This document shows, piece by piece, positions 762-10,745 of a DNA stretch of 64,000 nucleotides. The first letter of the stretch is position 1. The number at the start of each line of letters is the position of its first letter. The stretch comes from Leptospira biflexa (GTDB taxonomy: Bacteria > Spirochaetota > UBA4802 > UB4802). The stretch is from NCBI GenBank assembly GCA_020721905.1, contig DYLU01000002.1:11314-75313 (forward strand), written 5' to 3'. A program made the position numbers and the translations under genes. The notes beneath the pieces were generated by a model. It saw only the letters and a list, made by a program, of their open reading frames with translations. It was not told the origin of the DNA and did not search any database.

Positions 762-1036
762 AGCTTTACCTTTTATATTGTACTGTTTAACATCACTATA
801 CTATCGGAAAAATAATCAATTTTTAAAATTCATTTTTTCTTGACAAATAAATACCTACACAATTAAGCTAATATATGTATAGTAAATTATTTTTGTTATG
901 TCACATAAATGTTATTGACTTTTTTGTTTCAGTATGCCATTGTTTTATACAAATACCAAGTAGCAAACAATCCATAACCATTGCATGATATTTTTCTTCA
1001 TCATTCGTACTAATTCACCGTTTATGGAGTTTTTAT

Positions 1037-3112
1037 ATGGCAGATTCAAAAGATAGCCCCCAGTTTATCAGAAAACGGGATGGCAGGATAGTTCCTTTTA
1101 ATATTGAAAAGATTACAGAAGCAATATTCAAGGCTGCCCGTGCTGTTGGCGGCACTGACAGAAATACTGCAGCTCAAATTGCTAAATCAGTGGTTGATAT
1201 ATTGTCTTTATTATATAAAGGCGAGCATATTCCAACAGTTGAAAATGTTCAGGATTTAGTTGAAAAGATGCTCATAGAAAAAGGGCATGCAAAAGTTGCA
1301 AAAGCCTACATTCTGTACCGTGAACAGCACCGTAAAATACGTGAAGCGAAAAGCCTTTTCAGTGAAGGTATTCAGCTTATTGAAGATTACCTTGACAGAT
1401 CAGACTGGCGTGTAAACGAAAACAGCAATATGAGTTATTCTTTGCAGGGTTTAAACAATCATATTGCATCTGCAGTAACAGCTAAATACTGGCTTGAACG
1501 AATTTATCCTCCCGAAATCAGAGATGCACATGTTAATTGTGATCTTCATTTACATGATTTAGGATTGCTTTCTGCATACTGCGTTGGCTGGGATTTGCGC
1601 GACCTTTTGCTGAGCGGGTTTGGTGGTGTCCCCGGCAAAGTTGAAAGTAAACCTGCAAAACATTTCAGAAGTGCACTGGGACAGATAGTTAATTTTTTCT
1701 ATACCCTGCAGGGTGAATCGGCAGGTGCTCAAGCCTTTGCAAACTTTGATACGTATCTGGCTCCATTCATACGTTACGATAACTTAGATTATGCTGGCGT
1801 AAAACAGTGCCTGCAGGAATTTATTTTCAATATGAATATACCTACCCGTGTAGGATTCCAAACACCATTTACCAATATCACACTTGACCTTACTGTTCCC
1901 CGTTCTATAGCTGATGAACATGTTATCATTGGGGGACAATTCATGGTTGAGACATACGCACAGTTTCAAAAAGAAATGGATATCTTCAATACCGCCTTTG
2001 CTGAATGCATGCTTGAAGGTGATGCTCGCCACAGAATATTCACATTCCCCATACCCACATACAATATCACCAAAGATTTTGACTGGGAAAATCCTGCAAT
2101 AAACCTGCTATGGGAAATTACTGCTAAATATGGTATACCCTATTTTGCAAACTTTGTCAATTCTGACATGGATCCGGATGATGCACGTTCCATGTGCTGC
2201 CGTCTGCGACTTGATAACAGGGAACTACGCAAACGGGGTGGAGGTCTGTTTGGTGCAAATCCACTAACCGGAAGTATTGGTGTAGTAACCATTAATATGC
2301 CGCGTCTTGGATACCTTTCCAAAACAAAAGATGAATTTTTTGACAATCTTGCTCATTTAATGGATTTAGCTCGAAATTCATTGGAAATTAAACGTAAAGT
2401 TCTGGAAAACTTTACTGCTAATAATCTTTATCCTTATACTAGGGTTTATTTACGTGATGTATATCAACGATTCCAAAAATACTGGGTTAATCATTTCTCA
2501 ACTATTGGCCTTGTTGGGATGAACGAAGCCTGCCTTAATCTTTTAGGTCAGGACATAACAACTGAAGAAGGGAAAGAGTTCACTGCTCAGGTACTGGATT
2601 TTATGCGTGATAAAATTACCACCTATCAGCATGAAACGGGTAATTTATATAATCTGGAAGCAACACCTGCTGAGGGAGTAAGTTACCGCTTTGCGCGCCA
2701 TGATAAAAACAAATTCCCGGACATCATAACATCCGGTAAAAATGAGCCATATTATACCAACTCTATTCATCCACCGGTAGGATTTGCTCATGATATATTT
2801 GATTTGCTGGATCACCAGGATCAACTGCAGACAAAATTCACCGGGGGCACGGTAGTTCATTGCTTTTTAGGTGAAAAGATTGATGATCCGCAGATGGTTA
2901 AACTTCTGGTTAAAACCATTGCTTTTAACTACCATATACCATATTTTACCATTACGCCAACGTTCAGTATTTGTCCTGTTCATGGGTATATTCCGGGCAA
3001 TCATAAATTTTGTCCTTATGAGCATACAAAAGAAGAACTTGAGATGTTTGGCATAGATGTCGAAATTGAAGATAAAAAGCCATTGCAGATTGAAACACAG
3101 ATACAGCAGTAA
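1037..3112 (+). CDS. nrdD: anaerobic ribonucleoside-triphosphate reductase (class III RNR) large subunit, lacking the glycyl-radical tail
   Basis: N-terminal ATP-cone (FIRKRDGRIVPFNIEKITEAIFKA). Typical NrdD body motifs. C-terminal metal-site region ICPVHGYIPGNHKFCPYEH. Ends at TAA 3110-3112 before any RxxGY glycyl-radical motif. SD ggag upstream of ATG. Confidence 0.9.
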   Translation: MADSKDSPQFIRKRDGRIVPFNIEKITEAIFKAARAVGGTDRNTAAQIAKSVVDILSLLYKGEHIPTVENVQDLVEKMLIEKGHAKVAKAYILYREQHRKIREAKSLFSEGIQLIEDYLDRSDWRVNENSNMSYSLQGLNNHIASAVTAKYWLERIYPPEIRDAHVNCDLHLHDLGLLSAYCVGWDLRDLLLSGFGGVPGKVESKPAKHFRSALGQIVNFFYTLQGESAGAQAFANFDTYLAPFIRYDNLDYAGVKQCLQEFIFNMNIPTRVGFQTPFTNITLDLTVPRSIADEHVIIGGQFMVETYAQFQKEMDIFNTAFAECMLEGDARHRIFTFPIPTYNITKDFDWENPAINLLWEITAKYGIPYFANFVNSDMDPDDARSMCCRLRLDNRELRKRGGGLFGANPLTGSIGVVTINMPRLGYLSKTKDEFFDNLAHLMDLARNSLEIKRKVLENFTANNLYPYTRVYLRDVYQRFQKYWVNHFSTIGLVGMNEACLNLLGQDITTEEGKEFTAQVLDFMRDKITTYQHETGNLYNLEATPAEGVSYRFARHDKNKFPDIITSGKNEPYYTNSIHPPVGFAHDIFDLLDHQDQLQTKFTGGTVVHCFLGEKIDDPQMVKLLVKTIAFNYHIPYFTITPTFSICPVHGYIPGNHKFCPYEHTKEELEMFGIDVEIEDKKPLQIETQIQQ

Positions 3113-3154
3113 GAAATTTATAATTTTGTTACTATATTAAACGGGGGTTACATA

Positions 3155-3346
3155 ATGCAAAAGCACCACGAAAAAAAAATACCTGTTGAAGTATATTCAA
3201 GGGTTGTTGGGTATTTCAGACCAGTTAACCAATGGAATAAAGGAAAACAGGAAGAATTTCAAGAAAGAAAAGAGTTTATGAAAGATGAATTATTTAAGGT
3301 AGCCACACATGAATATTCGGGGTATTCAAAAAACCTCACTCATTGA
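3155..3346 (+). CDS. stand-alone glycyl-radical module of NrdD (63 aa), in-frame with nrdD after a TAA stop
   Basis: Translation VYSRVVGYFRPVNQWNKGKQEEFQERKEF matches the conserved NrdD C-terminal glycyl-radical motif (SRVxGY...NxGKQxE). Own SD gggggt 7 nt upstream of ATG 3155. Same reading frame as nrdD, with 14 codons including TAA between them. Overlaps the nrdG start by 38 nt. Confidence 0.6.
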   Translation: MQKHHEKKIPVEVYSRVVGYFRPVNQWNKGKQEEFQERKEFMKDELFKVATHEYSGYSKNLTH

Positions 3347-4004
3347 CTTTCCGCAGGTTATTAGCACTGTCCTTTTTACCGGTGGATGCAATTTACGCTG
3401 TCTTTACTGCCATAATGCATCATTGGCGTGCAATGACTGTAATTTGCAACAATATTCAAACCATGAGGTGCTGGAATTTTTACATAAACGAAAGCACCTT
3501 ATTGGTGGTGTTGTCATTACCGGTGGTGAACCAACACTTGCAAAGGGTATAATTCCCTTTTTAGAAAAGGTAAAAGAAACAGGATTAAAAGTAAAATTGG
3601 ACACTAATGGATTTCAGCCTCAGGTGTTAAAAAAAATACTGTCACAAAGGCTTGTTGACTACATAGCAATAGATATTAAAACATCACCAGAAAAATATCC
3701 AGTATTGACAAGAACAAAACTTTCATTTGATTTAATCATGAAATCTATTGCACTGCTCAAAGAACACCACGTAACATTTGAACTCAGGACAACCTGTGTA
3801 CCAGGGTTTGTAACCATTGAAGATTTTCAAGGTATAAAAGAGCGTGTGGGTAATGTTATGTATTATTATCTGCAGCAATTTGATAACCAGCACACACTGG
3901 ATGAATCGCTTCGCACAGTTAAACCTTACCCTAAAGATGTTTTATATTCATTCCAGCAGTTTGTAAAAACATTTGCTACCATTTGTGAAATTCGGGGATT
4001 ATAA
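3309..4004 (+). CDS. nrdG: anaerobic ribonucleotide reductase activating protein (radical SAM)
   Basis: CNLRCLYCHN radical-SAM cysteine motif near the N-terminus. GGEPTL SAM-binding motif. Immediately downstream of nrdD. Confidence 0.85.
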   Translation: MNIRGIQKTSLIDFPQVISTVLFTGGCNLRCLYCHNASLACNDCNLQQYSNHEVLEFLHKRKHLIGGVVITGGEPTLAKGIIPFLEKVKETGLKVKLDTNGFQPQVLKKILSQRLVDYIAIDIKTSPEKYPVLTRTKLSFDLIMKSIALLKEHHVTFELRTTCVPGFVTIEDFQGIKERVGNVMYYYLQQFDNQHTLDESLRTVKPYPKDVLYSFQQFVKTFATICEIRGL

Positions 4005-4075
4005 AAAATCTGTTGACATTACCTGATATCATTTTTTCTGTGTTATGTATTAATTTCAGGGAGGACAAATAATTT

Positions 4076-4171
4076 ATGAGCAAGCAGTATAGTCCACGCA
4101 TTAAGCGCAAACGTGCAAAACGAAGACTCAAAAGAAAGAAAAAAATGCTGGCAAAAAAGTTATCTAAATAG
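4076..4171 (+). CDS. 31-aa highly basic micro-protein (MSKQYSPRIKRKRAKRRLKRKKKMLAKKLSK)
   Basis: ATG at 4076 is preceded by a strong SD (gggagga) at 4059-4065. 17 of 31 residues are Arg/Lys. Stop TAG at 4169-4171. Below the 60-aa cutoff of the ORF track. Confidence 0.35.
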   Translation: MSKQYSPRIKRKRAKRRLKRKKKMLAKKLSK

Positions 4172-4173
4172 CA

Positions 4174-6855
4174 TTACTTATTTTTAGATTTCAGAATAAT
4201 CTCATCACCAACAACAAGCAGGATGTTATCAATATCAATTTTATCAGAAGAGGGATATGTAGCATTACAGGTAAGCCATATCCCTTTTTCATTACTAAGT
4301 GGTATATACAAGAGCACCGTATCAAAGTATAATCGATTATCCTTGTTCTTCTTGTCAATAAATCTGCTTGAATGGGAACAACCAAAGGCAATATATGACA
4401 TGATCCCATTTTTTGCAAGCATGTAGCGTAAATACAGTATTGCATCAAGCTGTGTGCCTTTCCCTGATCTAGAAAATTGCAAAAGCGATGTAGCTCTATA
4501 AGGGGTGGGATTTATGGTATATTGTTTCAGTTTCCCCATAAGCTCTGATATGATTTCTTCAAATGTCTTCCCGTTTAATTCAGTTTCAGTAAGAAAATAA
4601 TCTGCAATTTTAAAATGCAAACTTTCTTCATTAATCCATTCAATCAGGTTTTCAGATGTAAGCGCCATTATCATAAAATTCCTGTTATTATGTGCCGATA
4701 GTTCATAGGCATTAAATCTGATGTGCTGTATGCCATGCTCTTCTTTTGTAACATTGCCCTGCAATTCTGATACTATAACAGGCTCAACCTGTGAACCCAT
4801 AACAACAATATCCATATCAAATTGCGATAGATTATAATTCTGCTGGATGTGCACTACAGGAATTCCCTTGTTTATAATAAATGATAGTTCCACCAGGGCA
4901 TAGCTGTTCAGGTTTTTATCAAAACATGCCTTAATTCCCCTTTGCAGTGAATTGTTTAAATATTTTATTTTCTTTTTTTCAATCTTTCCGTTTTCACTAA
5001 CCAGGTATATTGTACATCCTGTTATTGTTACATCGCTACCAAAAGCATAATCATTTACCTGTGATGAACTGCCAGTATAATACAGGTCATAAATTGAACA
5101 ATATGCAGTATTATTAATAAATCGTAATGCATAACAAGAATACAGCAGGCCATTAGTTTTTCCTTGTATAGTTTCAAAGGCTAATCGTGAAAAAACATTT
5201 TGATACACATAATCATCAAAAGCATTCTTCAAATAATCACTATGCCATGGTATATCAGAAACTATCACCTCATGCTTCTTGCGGTACATGCTTCCATCAG
5301 ATTCTTCCAGATCAGCTATTGTTGCCAGCAATGCATATGCATGTGAATCAAATCCCCGGGCTATTCTTTTAAACAATACACTTTTTGCATCATTGTATCG
5401 CTTTAATGCCACGAGCGCATGTATATATTTATCAAAAAATCTACTTTCATTATTGTGCTCAACAACAGATACTATCGATCCAAACTGCTCATTCTGCTCA
5501 TAATATTGAATTAATAAAGCTGTAACTTTATCATCTGGGTCTGGTATTGATTCTAATATACTGATGGCTTTTTCAATGTCATGGTATGCTGTAATTTGAG
5601 CAACGATATAAGCAAGATCATTACTGTAAGGATACTCTTTTAACAAAGATTCAAGATTTGCTCTTTTATTAATCAGTACATCTTTTTCTCTATACAACAG
5701 ATAAATCAATAATGGTAGATAATGCCCTTGATTGGCATCAAAAGATTTCTTTAGATATATATAATCATAGTAGCTTTGCCATAATACTGATCTAAACTTT
5801 TCATTATTTTTTAGTAAACTTTGCATTACCAGCTCATATCCCAAAACCTTGTTTTCATATTTATATTTCATCAATAGAGATAAAAATCTGCAGGCTGCTA
5901 ACTCATTGTATGAGTGTAAAGCTTCTTTATAATATTTCAATGCTTCATAACTTTGCAGCGATTCATAAAAAAGCGCAAGTTTAAAAGCCGGATCATTGGA
6001 ACGCTGCTTATTATACTGTGTAAGCAATTGATTTTCATATTCATAATATGTTTCATACCATTGGACATCATGATAATATGAATTTTCTGTATCAGGTAAA
6101 TGTATACTCTGGTCAGTATCATCATAAAACTGTATTTTCAAAAACATGTCTTCTGCTAGTTTATAATATAGGGCAACTGTAAAGCCGCCTTCAGATTCTA
6201 TATGAAACATCCTGACCAGCTTTTTCTTATCCGTCAGAGCATTAACACATATTTTTTTCCCGTTAATATAACAAACATAATCCATATTTGAATAAATCCT
6301 GAGTGTAACGGGTACACTGGCTTTAAAAGACCCACTGCAAAGGCCAGTAGCGTTATACTCCTGAGTAAATTGCTTAACAGGGATAAAACCATTTTGATAT
6401 TGAAATACACGTACCTTGTTTTTACCTGATAAGAAATAAGGATTATTGGTGCATTGAAGAGCTGCAATGCTTTGCGGCATTTTTTCTTTGATATTATCGT
6501 ATATATCCCATCGATTGTTACCCTTAGTGGCGTCTTTTTGGTGTAACTCATCAATGAGAGTAACAATATCCTGAACATACAGCTTTTCAGCATCTGTATC
6601 AGCACTTCTGATTAATTCTTTAAGTAACAATACTGTCTTACTGACCCCTGCAACTTGTTGTATATGATGAATATCTGCCAGAATTAATGCAGGATCAGCT
6701 TTCCCTGATACTATTTCTTTTTCATACAGTTCTATTATATTGAGTGAATTGCCGTTACAGTATATTTGCTTACTGTCTTTACTGATAACAGGCAGAGCTT
6801 TTACAGGAACTATCGCCACCAGTACAATGGCCGTTACTATTAATAATTTATTCAT
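4174..6855 (-). CDS. large secreted protein (893 aa), TPR-like helical repeats, possible degenerate transglutaminase-like C-terminal region
   Basis: N-terminal signal peptide MNKLLIVTAIVLVAIVPVKA. Long Tyr/Leu-rich helical-repeat middle. C-terminal segment SGKGTQLDAILYLRYMLAKNGI resembles a transglutaminase-like core, but the catalytic Cys is replaced by Thr. Function unknown. Confidence 0.55.
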   Translation of the reverse strand: MNKLLIVTAIVLVAIVPVKALPVISKDSKQIYCNGNSLNIIELYEKEIVSGKADPALILADIHHIQQVAGVSKTVLLLKELIRSADTDAEKLYVQDIVTLIDELHQKDATKGNNRWDIYDNIKEKMPQSIAALQCTNNPYFLSGKNKVRVFQYQNGFIPVKQFTQEYNATGLCSGSFKASVPVTLRIYSNMDYVCYINGKKICVNALTDKKKLVRMFHIESEGGFTVALYYKLAEDMFLKIQFYDDTDQSIHLPDTENSYYHDVQWYETYYEYENQLLTQYNKQRSNDPAFKLALFYESLQSYEALKYYKEALHSYNELAACRFLSLLMKYKYENKVLGYELVMQSLLKNNEKFRSVLWQSYYDYIYLKKSFDANQGHYLPLLIYLLYREKDVLINKRANLESLLKEYPYSNDLAYIVAQITAYHDIEKAISILESIPDPDDKVTALLIQYYEQNEQFGSIVSVVEHNNESRFFDKYIHALVALKRYNDAKSVLFKRIARGFDSHAYALLATIADLEESDGSMYRKKHEVIVSDIPWHSDYLKNAFDDYVYQNVFSRLAFETIQGKTNGLLYSCYALRFINNTAYCSIYDLYYTGSSSQVNDYAFGSDVTITGCTIYLVSENGKIEKKKIKYLNNSLQRGIKACFDKNLNSYALVELSFIINKGIPVVHIQQNYNLSQFDMDIVVMGSQVEPVIVSELQGNVTKEEHGIQHIRFNAYELSAHNNRNFMIMALTSENLIEWINEESLHFKIADYFLTETELNGKTFEEIISELMGKLKQYTINPTPYRATSLLQFSRSGKGTQLDAILYLRYMLAKNGIMSYIAFGCSHSSRFIDKKNKDNRLYFDTVLLYIPLSNEKGIWLTCNATYPSSDKIDIDNILLVVGDEIILKSKNK

Positions 6856-6867
6856 AAAGTTTCAATA

Positions 6868-8235
6868 TCACTTGCCAATGCAAAAGCGTGAAAAAATAGA
6901 ATTCAGAACATCATCAACGGATATTTCACCAGTGACCGCTCCTATTGTATCAATAACATTTTGAAGTGCTGATGCAATAATTTCATGGGGGCTGCTTATG
7001 GCTATATGATGAAGCGCTTCCCGTGCATACTCAAGAGACTGCTCCAGTAATTGTATCATACGAATATCAGCAATAAAAGAATTTTTGTACTCAACATACT
7101 GTGACCTGATAAATTGATATACCGCATCCTCCAGTGCAGGGACACCATAGCCTGTTTTTGCAGAAAACACAATTCCTTTTTGTCCAATAGCATCCTGAAT
7201 TATTGCTATTGATTCTTGTGTTGCAATATCAGTTTTATTAATGACTGGTATAAACGGTTTATTGCTCATTAATTTCATGATATGCTCATCATCAGAAGTA
7301 AGACCCGTTACTGCATCAATGATAAAAATTATCAGTGATACCTCATCTATCAGTTTGTAGCTCCGCTGCACACCTAAAAGTTCAATCCCATCTGCATATT
7401 CATGTATTCCGGCAGTATCAAGCAGATTGCATTGCATACCCTTAATTGAAACCGATTCTTTTATCACATCCCGGGTTGTCCCCGGTGTATCCGATACAAT
7501 TGCCCGTTCATGATTGAGCATACAGTTTAGAAAGCTGGATTTACCTGCATTGGGTTTTCCTACAATTGCAATATCAATACCGTGAGAAAGATGCTGGCCA
7601 ATCCTACATCTGTTAAGTATTTCCTGTAGTTTATCAATGATAGCGAGCATTCTTTGATGTGCATTTTCAAACGATATAATCTCAATATCATCATCCACAA
7701 AGTCAATAGCACATTCAATATCTGCCTTCAATTCAATAATGTTATGTTTAATATCATTGATTGCATTTTTCAGTGACCCATGCTTTTGCTGTATTGCGGT
7801 TGCTATCTCCCATTCACTGCGTGCAGCAATAATATGGTTTATTGCTTCTGCTTCAGTCAGATCCATCTTGCCATGTAAAAATGCCCGTCTGGTAAACTCA
7901 CCCGGTTCAGCTATCCGTACATTCAGTGCAATAATACAATTCATTATTTTATTTACTATGATTGGATTGCCATGGCAGAATATTTCCACCATATCCTCAC
8001 CTGTATAACTTTGCGGGCGTTTATAATAAATGACAATACAATCATCAATTTCTTCATTGTTATCATGAATACTACCGTAATATGCATATCGGGGAATAAA
8101 TTCCCGGGTATGCCCTTGTAGCCTGAATATAGAAGAAGTGACCCGTAAAGAATCAGGGCCGCTTATCCGTATAATGGCTATTGGTGAATGTACTGGCGGG
8201 GTTGCCGGAGCACATATTGTATCATCCATCTGCAT
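6868..8235 (-). CDS. mnmE: tRNA modification GTPase MnmE (TrmE)
   Basis: G-domain motifs GKPNAGKSS and DTAG. C-terminal CIGK tetrapeptide typical of MnmE. Start ATG overlaps the jag stop (TAATG). Confidence 0.9.
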   Translation of the reverse strand: MQMDDTICAPATPPVHSPIAIIRISGPDSLRVTSSIFRLQGHTREFIPRYAYYGSIHDNNEEIDDCIVIYYKRPQSYTGEDMVEIFCHGNPIIVNKIMNCIIALNVRIAEPGEFTRRAFLHGKMDLTEAEAINHIIAARSEWEIATAIQQKHGSLKNAINDIKHNIIELKADIECAIDFVDDDIEIISFENAHQRMLAIIDKLQEILNRCRIGQHLSHGIDIAIVGKPNAGKSSFLNCMLNHERAIVSDTPGTTRDVIKESVSIKGMQCNLLDTAGIHEYADGIELLGVQRSYKLIDEVSLIIFIIDAVTGLTSDDEHIMKLMSNKPFIPVINKTDIATQESIAIIQDAIGQKGIVFSAKTGYGVPALEDAVYQFIRSQYVEYKNSFIADIRMIQLLEQSLEYAREALHHIAISSPHEIIASALQNVIDTIGAVTGEISVDDVLNSIFSRFCIGK

Positions 8236-8873
8236 TACCTTTTTTCTACAGGCATAATTCTTACCTTTCTATAAATGCCCTGTCCCTCACTCCTTGTGGT
8301 AACCTTTGAATCATTCTGCAATGTCAAATGTATAAGCCTGCGTTCAAATGGATTCATGGGCTCTAATGCCCAGGGCTTGCCGGTTCGGGCAACTTTCAAT
8401 GCAATTTCTTTGGATAATTTTCGCAAAGCTTTTTCTCTTTTTGCCCTGTATGATTCAATATCAAGAATTATCTTTTTTTCTGAATTGGTCATTTTATTAA
8501 CCAGAAGGTTAACCATAAACTGCAATGCCTCCAGGGTTTTCCCTTTTTTACCTATAATTAAACCTGAACTAAAGCTTTCCAGTTCAACATATACCTTATT
8601 TTCGCTTTCCTTATAATCTTTAACCCTGGCTTCAACTTCCATCAACATCAAAATCTTTTCAATAATTTCTTTTACCTGTTGGCCAATATCATCTGCCTGT
8701 TGGTAATATACTCGTATTTTAGCAGGGCGTGATATGCCAAAACCAAAGATACCGCTTTTCCCTTCATCCAGCACTTCAATATTGATTTTGTTCATATCAT
8801 TAATTTTTAATAACGATAAGGCTTTCTTTGTTGCTTCTTCAACGGTCTTCCCTTCAATATCTAACACCTTCAT
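8235..8873 (-). CDS. khpB: RNA-binding protein KhpB/Jag (Jag-N, KH and R3H domains)
   Basis: Conserved position between yidC and mnmE. KH/R3H-like sequence (ERRLIHLTLQNDSKVTTRSEG). Start corrected to ATG 8873 (MKVLDIEG) with SD aggagg 7 nt upstream. The track start at 8912 is a TTG. Confidence 0.8.
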   Translation of the reverse strand: MKVLDIEGKTVEEATKKALSLLKINDMNKINIEVLDEGKSGIFGFGISRPAKIRVYYQQADDIGQQVKEIIEKILMLMEVEARVKDYKESENKVYVELESFSSGLIIGKKGKTLEALQFMVNLLVNKMTNSEKKIILDIESYRAKREKALRKLSKEIALKVARTGKPWALEPMNPFERRLIHLTLQNDSKVTTRSEGQGIYRKVRIMPVEKR

Positions 8874-9122
8874 GTTCACGCCTCCTACGAAACTTTGATA
8901 ATAATAGTTCAATGTTTTGTATGGTGATGTTTCTTCCCTCCTTTAATTTTTAATTTTCAATATTTCTTCTTCATGCATTTATCTCAATTACCGTATGAAA
9001 TCGATTGTTTACATAACCTTCCCAATATATTAGCCAGTTTGCATGGTCGTAGTTACAGCCATGTATAACTCTTCTGAAGATAATGTACTTATAAAGTCCT
9101 CACATTTCACACAAAATTTGTA

Positions 9123-10745
9123 TTACTTTTTCCTGCTTAATGTATTAATAAACATCTGATGGCCTATCTGTAATACATTTTGCATAATCCAGTACAACAC
9201 CAGCCCTGAAGGCATATTCCAGAAGATAACAATAAATATTAGCGGCATGAGCATCAACATCTTCTGTTGCTGGGTGGCTTCACCTGAAGACATCTTCTGC
9301 TGCAGATATGTTGTACCTGTCATAATCAGAGGCAATATATTAATATTAAACCCTGCTATCCTGTAAATTGTATCAGGCAATGACAGATCCTTTATCCACA
9401 GAATAAAAGGTGCCTGCCATAAATCTACAGAGTTCACCAACGCACTATAGAGAGCAAAAAAGAAAGGCATCTGCAAAAGCAACGGTAAACACCCGCCCAT
9501 TGGATTCACTTTATTTTTTTTGTATACTTCCATAATCTTTTTATTTAAAACATCAGGCTTATCTTTATACTTTTCACGCAATTCCTGAATTACAGGATTC
9601 AATTCCTGCATTTTCTTCATGGATTCCGTGGAGCGTTGCGTCAGTGGTAAAAACATTATTTTTGTAATAACTGAAAAAATTACCAGTGACCACCCTAAAT
9701 TCCCTACCAGCCTGTTTATTTCAAGCAGGCACCACATCATAAAGTCCCTGATAGGTTCAATCCACTTGCTGACATCTGCAGCATCACCAATGTGCTTATC
9801 AACAGCCAGTAGTTTATCTTTATTCTTTGGACCAACATATACTTTAAAATCATGTGTGATCGTTTCACCGGGTTTCAGTGGTTTGATTGGTACCACAATA
9901 CCCGTCCTGAAGCCAGACTGTTCCCTGTTATCATACACCACACCTGAACCTGCAAAACCCTGTGGTATCATAATTAAAAGATAGTACCTGCTCATTATGC
10001 CAGCCCATTGTACCACACCGTTTTCACGTTTAAGGTCTTCCGGTGTAGAAAAGAATCCGCCACCCTTTCGTGCTTTTTCAAAACTGTCATCTATATAATA
10101 AATACTGTATAACTCATTATATGAATTATCAAAATCCATTGATGGCCCTAAAAAATCAGACGGGGAAAATATTACACCCCCTTCAGGAAATGTAAATTCG
10201 TTTTGCCCTTTATTTGTGATAGCATACGATACAACAAAATATTGTCCTGTTTCGTTATACGTAAATTTCTTTGAAATTTCCAGTCGATTTTTTTGTACGA
10301 TAGCAACTGTGGAAAAGTGCACTGCCGATCCATCTTTTTGCATTTTCCATAATACTGGCGGTATATCCTTTGCATGCAAAAATTCCCCCGTTGAAAAATG
10401 AACAGGGAAATCAAAAAATCCTTTTGCATCAAATTTTGATTGAGTTACAATTAATTCAATCTTTCTTACTTTATCAATAAACGATGTACATTGCCCATCT
10501 TCATTGGAAAGTACTGCTGTATAGTATTTTGCATCAATAGTAACATCTTCCTTTTTTGAAGATGCTTGCTGAAGTTTTGAAACGACAGAAATTTCAGGTT
10601 TTTGTATTTCTTCAGTTTGCACTGTTTCAGGTTCAGCACTTTTTTCCGGGATTGGGGCTGTTTTTTCCTGTGGTTGAAAGAAATAAAACCACAGTATCCA
10701 TATTCCCAGTGATAATAACACAGCAATCAAAGCCCTTTTTTCCAT
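9123..10745 (-). CDS. yidC: membrane protein insertase YidC (540 aa)
   Basis: N-terminal TM segment, large periplasmic domain, C-terminal 5-TM core with the GGCLPLLLQMPFFFALY motif. Confidence 0.9.
   Translation of the reverse strand: MEKRALIAVLLSLGIWILWFYFFQPQEKTAPIPEKSAEPETVQTEEIQKPEISVVSKLQQASSKKEDVTIDAKYYTAVLSNEDGQCTSFIDKVRKIELIVTQSKFDAKGFFDFPVHFSTGEFLHAKDIPPVLWKMQKDGSAVHFSTVAIVQKNRLEISKKFTYNETGQYFVVSYAITNKGQNEFTFPEGGVIFSPSDFLGPSMDFDNSYNELYSIYYIDDSFEKARKGGGFFSTPEDLKRENGVVQWAGIMSRYYLLIMIPQGFAGSGVVYDNREQSGFRTGIVVPIKPLKPGETITHDFKVYVGPKNKDKLLAVDKHIGDAADVSKWIEPIRDFMMWCLLEINRLVGNLGWSLVIFSVITKIMFLPLTQRSTESMKKMQELNPVIQELREKYKDKPDVLNKKIMEVYKKNKVNPMGGCLPLLLQMPFFFALYSALVNSVDLWQAPFILWIKDLSLPDTIYRIAGFNINILPLIMTGTTYLQQKMSSGEATQQQKMLMLMPLIFIVIFWNMPSGLVLYWIMQNVLQIGHQMFINTLSRKK

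Follow-up and report, generated by a model that had tools for sequence, protein, structure and literature searches.

Can the glycyl radical of a class III (anaerobic) ribonucleotide reductase (RNR) reside on a polypeptide of its own? The question is raised by a locus in a 64,000-nucleotide (nt) stretch of Leptospira biflexa DNA (assembly GCA_020721905.1, contig DYLU01000002.1, positions 11,314 to 75,313 of the forward strand), hereafter called the window. Its nrdD gene encodes the catalytic core of the enzyme, and the glycyl-radical loop is found on a small open reading frame (ORF) inserted between nrdD and the activase gene nrdG. Judged from sequence, the locus very probably encodes a class III RNR made of two polypeptides, followed by its activase. 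This reading is preferred because the two ORFs cover complementary parts of the NrdD family model, the core is devoid of the radical motif, the split extends over the whole order to which the window belongs, and the small ORF is under selection and possesses its own ATG and Shine-Dalgarno (SD) sequence.

Organisation of the locus

The following features, all on the plus strand, make up the locus (window coordinates).

1037-3112: nrdD core subunit, 691 amino acids (aa), 79.1 kDa; ATP-cone and class III RNR barrel, without the glycyl-radical loop
1064-1333: ATP-cone, core residues 10-99 (PF03477, E 2.9e-24)
2195-2200: Cys387-Cys388 within SMCCRLR, presumed finger-loop site of the thiyl radical; invariant in 40 aligned cores
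2972-3025: remnant of the metal site, CPVHG...CPYEH (C646, H649, C659, H663); four residues invariant, putative metal binding
3026-3109: C-terminal tail of the core, residues 664-691; its first part, TxEELExFGIxV, is conserved
3110-3112: TAA stop closing the core ORF, as read from the sequence
3113-3154: 42-nt spacer (14 codons, same frame); SD sequence GGGGG at 3143-3147, 7 nt before the ATG at 3155
3155-3346: small glycyl-radical subunit, 63 aa, 7.7 kDa, isoelectric point 9.3; match to PF13597
3200-3214: RVVGY glycyl-radical motif, residues 16-20 of the small ORF; Gly19 codon at 3209-3211
3309-4004: nrdG activase, radical S-adenosylmethionine enzyme, 231 aa; TIGR02495 (NrdG2) 204 bits against a cut-off of 131; PF04055

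The initial annotation had described an nrdD ORF that ends at a TAA just after its Cys/His site and contains no RxxGY, followed 14 codons downstream, in the same frame, by a 63-aa ORF with its own SD sequence and a glycyl-radical motif, which runs into the start of nrdG. All of this is borne out by the sequence. The stop lies 28 residues past the Cys/His site (C646-P-V-H649 ... C659-P-Y-E-H663), and the overlap of the small ORF with nrdG amounts to 38 nt (3309-3346); overlap or close abutment of these two genes is conserved across related loci. The barrel is present in the core (PF13597, E 1e-181; NF006126, 1055 bits against a cut-off of 548), and an activase of the NrdG type scoring above its cut-off is adjacent. 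A motif scan found no RxxG[YFW] in the 691-aa core, and the only copy is that of the small ORF. The glycine loop is thus not on the barrel polypeptide, RVxGY being supplied in trans by the 63-aa ORF.

Matches to the family models divide accordingly between the two frames. Coverage of the Pfam NRDD model (PF13597, length 562) is exactly complementary, with positions 1-530 in the core and 531-562 in the small ORF (39.7 bits, cut-off 26.2), and in NF006126 (length 684) the respective stretches are 4-652 and 651-682. The source genome, which is 95% complete, contains the NRDD core and the small ORF once each.

Conservation of the split

The initial annotation had raised the question whether relatives carry the stop as well, and the split was found throughout the order. 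A six-frame search of 41 genomes of the window's order recovered the radical peptide in 40, always within an open frame of 49-137 aa and never within a long one, and a second, phylum-wide draw revealed a small separate frame in 45/45 other genomes of the order, belonging to six families. The best 80 species-representative loci, all from Spirochaetota metagenome-assembled genomes, are likewise split (80/80); the titles of these records include both 'Spirochaetota bacterium' and 'uncultured Leptospirales bacterium', and a sludge or sediment sample is indicated by a few of the record names. The same split is seen in two single-contig genomes (G032, L110). As read from the frames, the recurrence of the split in every relative examined is far beyond chance.

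The sequences of both proteins are strongly constrained. In the alignment of 40 cores (A1), the Cys pair 387/388, presumably that of the finger loop, is invariant, as are C646, H649, C659, H663 and G672, while L668 is near-invariant. The tail segment TxEELExFGIxV has no counterpart in short-linker fused NrdD. In the alignment of 40 small proteins (A2), 21 columns are invariant, spread over P-V-E-V-Y-S-R-V-x-G-Y-x-R-P-x-x-Q-W-N-x-G-K-x-E-E-F-x-x-R; within the motif itself V18 is near-invariant and the other four residues (R16, V17, G19, Y20) do not vary. Compared with six close relatives, the small ORF has a dN/dS ratio (non-synonymous to synonymous substitution rates) of 0.03-0.21, with similar values in the 51 codons outside the nrdG overlap; these ratios indicate that the small ORF is under purifying selection.

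Comparison with fused relatives locates the break. These proteins have C-x2-(H/C) ... C-x2-C, then 4-5 residues, then E(V/I)YSR; the break therefore sits between the metal ribbon and the strand leading into the glycine loop. The small protein carries all that follows the metal site in an ordinary NrdD, i.e., the beta-strand PVEVY, the glycine loop SRVVGY with Gly19, and the following helix. C646, H649, C659 and H663 are invariant, yet the fourth Cys of the fused relatives is replaced here; in the clade of the window H663 has probably taken over as fourth metal ligand.

The small proteins constitute a large family without a model of its own. A word-indexed search returned 701 clusters of relatives of 34-111 aa, labelled at their source as hypothetical or as 'anaerobic ribonucleoside-triphosphate reductase', and an exhaustive search of 1.84 billion representative proteins gave 2839 matches, the best 150 of which are all 47-109 aa long. 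No dedicated model was found in Pfam, NCBIfam or PHROGs; the small protein only touches the end of NrdD models, and in PHROGs it matches weakly the C-terminus of the NrdD large-subunit family. As such ORFs lack their own model in these three databases, truncated cores could be misread as pseudogenes. A search of solved structures with the 63-aa protein alone gave no match.

Predicted complex of the core and the small protein

A complex of the core and the small protein, modelled from alignments built for the purpose, obtained a score of 0.77, compared with 0.00 for the best of three controls; among 80 solved complexes 58 reach that mark, among 110 mismatched pairs 2. Contacts agree to at least 84% among the runs, the predicted local distance difference test (pLDDT) of the partner is at least 65, and 212-232 contacts are placed at the interface. 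In the model, residues 11-14 of the small protein are paired with 642-646 of the core; its residues 8-11 are placed against 654-659 and the conserved tail (667-679) of the core, and the remainder of the small protein reaches into the barrel.

Forms of the joint in Spirochaetota

Outside the window's order the joint between barrel and radical domain takes several forms. In form (i) the same split is accompanied by tails such as CP(L/Y)PHTEEEL..YGKY (L025, L026, L157, L158, L162, L163). In form (ii) the core ends right after C-P, the third metal ligand, and the small protein has a 'KC' four residues before EVYSR, at the following loci.

L160: core 1499-3571, minus strand; small subunit 1205-1366, minus strand
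L165: core 836-2851, plus strand; small subunit 2775-3089, plus strand

The cysteine of this 'KC' occupies the position of the fourth ligand in fused NrdD, which suggests a metal site shared between the two chains. In form (iii) the core (L022-L024) keeps its CxxC and ends in a charged helix (KAEKERELRLKLERLEKEKE), and the small protein, about 140-180 aa long, consists of a helix at its N-terminus, the glycine loop and a domain of about 100 aa that has a thioredoxin fold and bears CPNCP. Its loci are as follows.

L022: small subunit, 3605-4171, plus strand
L023: small subunit, 3198-3737, minus strand
L024: small subunit, 3386-4000, plus strand
L027: fused counterpart of form (iii), 3100-5640, minus strand

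The helices of the core and of the small protein could form a coiled coil holding the pieces together, and the redoxin may be a built-in reductant of the enzyme. Form (iv) is fused with a short linker (L147, L149-L154, L166 and the viral L140); in a variant of it a thioredoxin-like domain is appended after the glycine loop (L027, L152, L155). Form (v) is likewise fused; its linker is long and still contains the tail motif (L156, L148).

A tree was calculated from 40 cores cut before the joint (IQ-TREE, quick mode; support by the Shimodaira-Hasegawa-like approximate likelihood-ratio test, SH-aLRT). The window's order falls into one well-supported clade of 17 rows, all split. At least six changes between the split and the fused state, in either direction, are needed, four of them forced by the branches starred on the tree. 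The joint is therefore evolutionarily labile.

Additional, stand-alone and phage-borne modules

The small subunit also occurs in extra copies, several genomes holding 2-4 genes for it. The copies examined in detail are listed below.

L028 (same as L057), genome of the window's order: tandem small-subunit genes at 4162-4356 and 4399-4584, between core and nrdG
L029, genome of the window's genus: second copy at 3919-4176 with a Cys-rich C-terminal extension, adjoining a Mu GemA gene (prophage)
L032: stand-alone copy at 3645-3809, beside RusA and ArdC-N
L030: stand-alone copy at 3044-3247, between leuS and thiD
L033: stand-alone copy at 3522-3722, minus strand, between a TonB-dependent receptor, which it follows, and a DUF4430 protein

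Neither a core nor nrdG was found within 3.5 kb of L029, L032, L030 or L033. In IMG/VR, 30 viral contigs (L114-L143) have a gene for a relative of the small protein, with 52-84% identity in the best-matching segment. In 27 of the 30 the small frame has no core or nrdG within 4 kb, this number including one contig cut by its end and some near-duplicates. Two viral contigs carry a fused nrdD, and in three (L138, L141, L143) the module has its own full CxxC...CxxC ribbon. The module adjoins the gene for the terminase large subunit in L114 and L120, and that for a DnaB-like helicase in L126. Five whole viral records (G312-G316) contain only a piece of about 30 residues of the NRDD C-terminus, and neither a core nor NrdG scores above the cut-off in them; one of the five, 57.9 kb long with terminal repeats, is rated 100% complete. 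Stand-alone copies on chromosomes and in prophages, together with those in phage genomes devoid of core and NrdG, would imply action in trans. As far as can be judged from gene content, the lone phage modules are hard to account for except by action in trans with the core and NrdG of the host.

Proposed mechanism and alternative explanations

In the mechanism proposed for the two-polypeptide enzyme, the 79-kDa core would contribute the ATP-cone, the barrel with Cys387/Cys388, the remodelled metal site of Cys2His2 type and the conserved acidic tail, and the 7.7-kDa protein would be translated from its own ATG and SD sequence. Both proteins would be made and would assemble non-covalently into the active enzyme. 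NrdG would abstract, using S-adenosylmethionine, a hydrogen of Gly19 in the small protein. Seated in the core, with its strand paired with residues 642-646 and its N-terminal part against the tail (667-679), the small protein would carry the glycyl radical that then generates a thiyl radical on a finger-loop cysteine. The 38-nt overlap may couple translation of the small ORF to that of nrdG, keeping the radical carrier and its activase in step. Oxygen destroys glycyl-radical enzymes by cleavage of the chain at the radical glycine. In the split enzyme such cleavage might require replacement of only the 7.7-kDa piece, and not of the whole enzyme. We put forward tentatively, as a proposal a little short of an even chance, that the small proteins are a family of autonomous, exchangeable radical cofactors of class III RNR. 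Cells would restore a 79-kDa core after oxygen damage by exchanging the 7.7-kDa piece, some lineages would keep extra copies, and phages of these spirochaetes would plug a module of 50-60 residues into the host core, thereby boosting the supply of deoxyribonucleoside triphosphates during anaerobic infection.

Several points weigh against reading the locus as a two-polypeptide enzyme. The evidence is computational throughout, and most of it derives from metagenome-assembled genomes. The complex score may partly reflect memory of solved fused NrdD structures, a likeness to which is what it shows. RNA support is weak, consisting of short metatranscriptome contigs that possibly stem from DNA carry-over: two contigs of 86 nt from RNA libraries lie over 3274-3359 with one mismatch each, all others come from relatives, and the segment 3108-3243 is covered by no RNA contig, which does not speak against transcription. 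A second RNR is encoded in the genome as well (locus L144; G000:C117:18559-19971, minus strand; PF02867, 478 bits, 776-aa frame), whose product is, by this match, a class I/II-type RNR large subunit. The split enzyme therefore need not be essential, and an argument for the split NrdD from essentiality fails. Finally, the fission could be neutral, and exchangeability without advantage.

This last point leads to the alternative that survives best, which is possible but somewhat doubtful. The split would be real and the small protein a permanently bound subunit that arose by neutral fission, with no exchange, repair or benefit. The joint state changes at least six times on the core tree, suggesting that either state is tolerated, the predicted interface is extensive, and the small ORF is here always encoded next to its core, in a single copy in the window's genome. 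A fixed subunit is a poor fit with the tandem, stand-alone and phage-only copies, which are sensible only if the small subunit can enter a foreign core.

The initial annotation had named programmed readthrough of the TAA as its second possibility. A single fused, long-linker NrdD would then be produced and the small ORF would not be translated separately. That the two ORFs of the window share a frame 14 codons apart fits with this, as do the few long-linker fused relatives (L156, L148). However, in the 74 species-level loci with a core as well as a small ORF, the distance between the two ranges from -1 to 371 nt, the relative frames 0, 1 and 2 occur 21, 30 and 23 times, and the core is closed by all three stop codons (TAA 58, TAG 9, TGA 7); the in-frame relation in the window is therefore a coincidence. 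In the same loci the small ORF, 46-65 aa long, begins with ATG in 74/74, preceded in 73 by an SD-like motif. Contigs of two other, independent samples, about 94% identical, span the region with a 1-nt insertion in the spacer. Nor does the RNA offer a stimulus for readthrough, the 42-nt spacer showing no plus-strand terminator and no stable fold (z -0.95), and a scan of the whole window against Rfam giving no match. The frame statistics refute readthrough for the clade, and for the window it is very improbable. A natural split with a separate glycyl-radical subunit, the first of the three possibilities, is strongly supported by conservation, frame statistics and selection.

In two species of the window's genus (L009/L010, L038/L039) the spacer has an insert of about 370 nt instead of about 40 nt, which looked repeat-rich by eye (e.g., CCTGAA...TTCAGG) and might be a small mobile element; insertions into the spacer are evidently tolerated. 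An intron in the window was considered and rejected, the gap being 42 nt long, with no intron in it and no Rfam match in the window.

A sequencing or assembly error, or recent pseudogenisation of nrdD, the third possibility of the initial annotation, has the stop codon itself in its favour and nothing further. Six families of the order, and lineages outside it, share the split; the purifying selection described above acts on the small ORF; and the core is intact over the full length of its model. A separate assembly from the probable source run is identical to the window, of which it is not independent; the two other samples (X2, X3) probably retain the stop, no change at 3110-3112 being among the differences listed for them. 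The initial annotation had expected close relatives uniformly fused with the same linker if the stop were an error, but long-linker fused forms are a scattered minority among split ones. An error or a pseudogene is thus refuted. Negligible, too, is the chance that the pieces are ligated post-translationally in the manner of a split intein or that the small protein serves another glycyl-radical enzyme: no supporting point was found, neither piece contains an intein domain, neither the core tail (28 aa) nor the small N-terminus (about 10 aa) is long enough to be one, both vary in length and lack a conserved junction nucleophile, and the small protein, encoded between the nrdD core and nrdG, matches only NrdD models.

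Relation to known systems

The preferred two-polypeptide enzyme shares with the canonical single-chain NrdD and its NrdG (phage T4, E. coli, Thermotoga maritima 4COI, Prevotella copri 8P23) the barrel, the ATP-cone, the glycine-loop sequence, the adjacent activase and the gene order, and the two ORFs of the window together cover the whole family model. It differs in having the glycine loop on a separate 63-aa chain, in the added conserved tail of the core and in the metal site, which is C-H-C-H in the window and C-C-C-C or C-H-C-C in canonical NrdD.

The closest functional parallel is GrcA/YfiD, the 'spare part' of pyruvate formate-lyase, which is likewise a small free-standing protein consisting of the radical module only. 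Both are presumably activated by the activase of the parent enzyme, and modules of both kinds are phage-borne. The comparison with GrcA/YfiD drawn in the initial annotation is apt as an analogy and does not extend to homology, as the small protein has no match to PF01228; only PF13597 matched at E values up to 0.1. A class III RNR with an autonomous radical subunit would thus be functionally analogous to GrcA and non-homologous to it. Whereas GrcA/YfiD is a back-up, the small protein of the window is the only radical module of this kind in its genome and, by its sequence, a putative obligate subunit.

Split or interrupted RNR genes are known from other settings. Class II NrdJa/NrdJb of Pseudomonas aeruginosa (as cited in PMC9669993) and class I NrdA-a/NrdA-b of Aeromonas phage Aeh1 (PMC3653736) are encoded, like the enzyme of the window, with the catalytic chain in two consecutive genes without intron or intein, and they work as non-covalent complexes. 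The window differs from them in class and in break point, isolates the radical-bearing element and has no homing endonuclease in the gap. Phage nrdD genes may be interrupted as well, by a group I intron in T4 or by fragmentation in Aeromonas phage phiAS4 (PMC3653736). These also have their coding sequence in more than one piece, but they represent introns or sporadic breaks in single phages, whereas the window has a 42-nt gap, no intron and an order-wide, conserved split under selection. Full-text searches of papers that need no subscription yielded no description of a split class III RNR or of a conserved NrdD break at the radical domain. A review from 2026 devoted to glycyl-radical enzymes recognises spare-part proteins for formate lyases only and leaves the matter open for other enzymes (PMC13450708). 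We regard the conserved, order-wide split of NrdD at the radical domain as new; interrupted RNR genes as such are already known.

If true, an exchangeable radical module would be the first spare-part system outside pyruvate formate-lyase. Because the module is naturally separate, abundant, diversified, duplicated and phage-carried, the spare-part question becomes directly testable beyond formate lyases. With its roughly 60 residues, the small protein would also serve as a minimal substrate on which recognition and activation by NrdG could be studied. The system would further illustrate, in a natural case, how a radical domain leaves and re-enters the barrel, and would add a new type of very small auxiliary metabolic gene in phages.

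Neighbouring genes

Directly downstream of nrdG, on the opposite strand, lies an ORF of 893 aa (4174-6855, minus strand) with no Pfam match at E 1e-4. It is followed by an mnmE-jag-yidC cluster (6868-10745, minus strand); such clusters are often situated near the replication origin.

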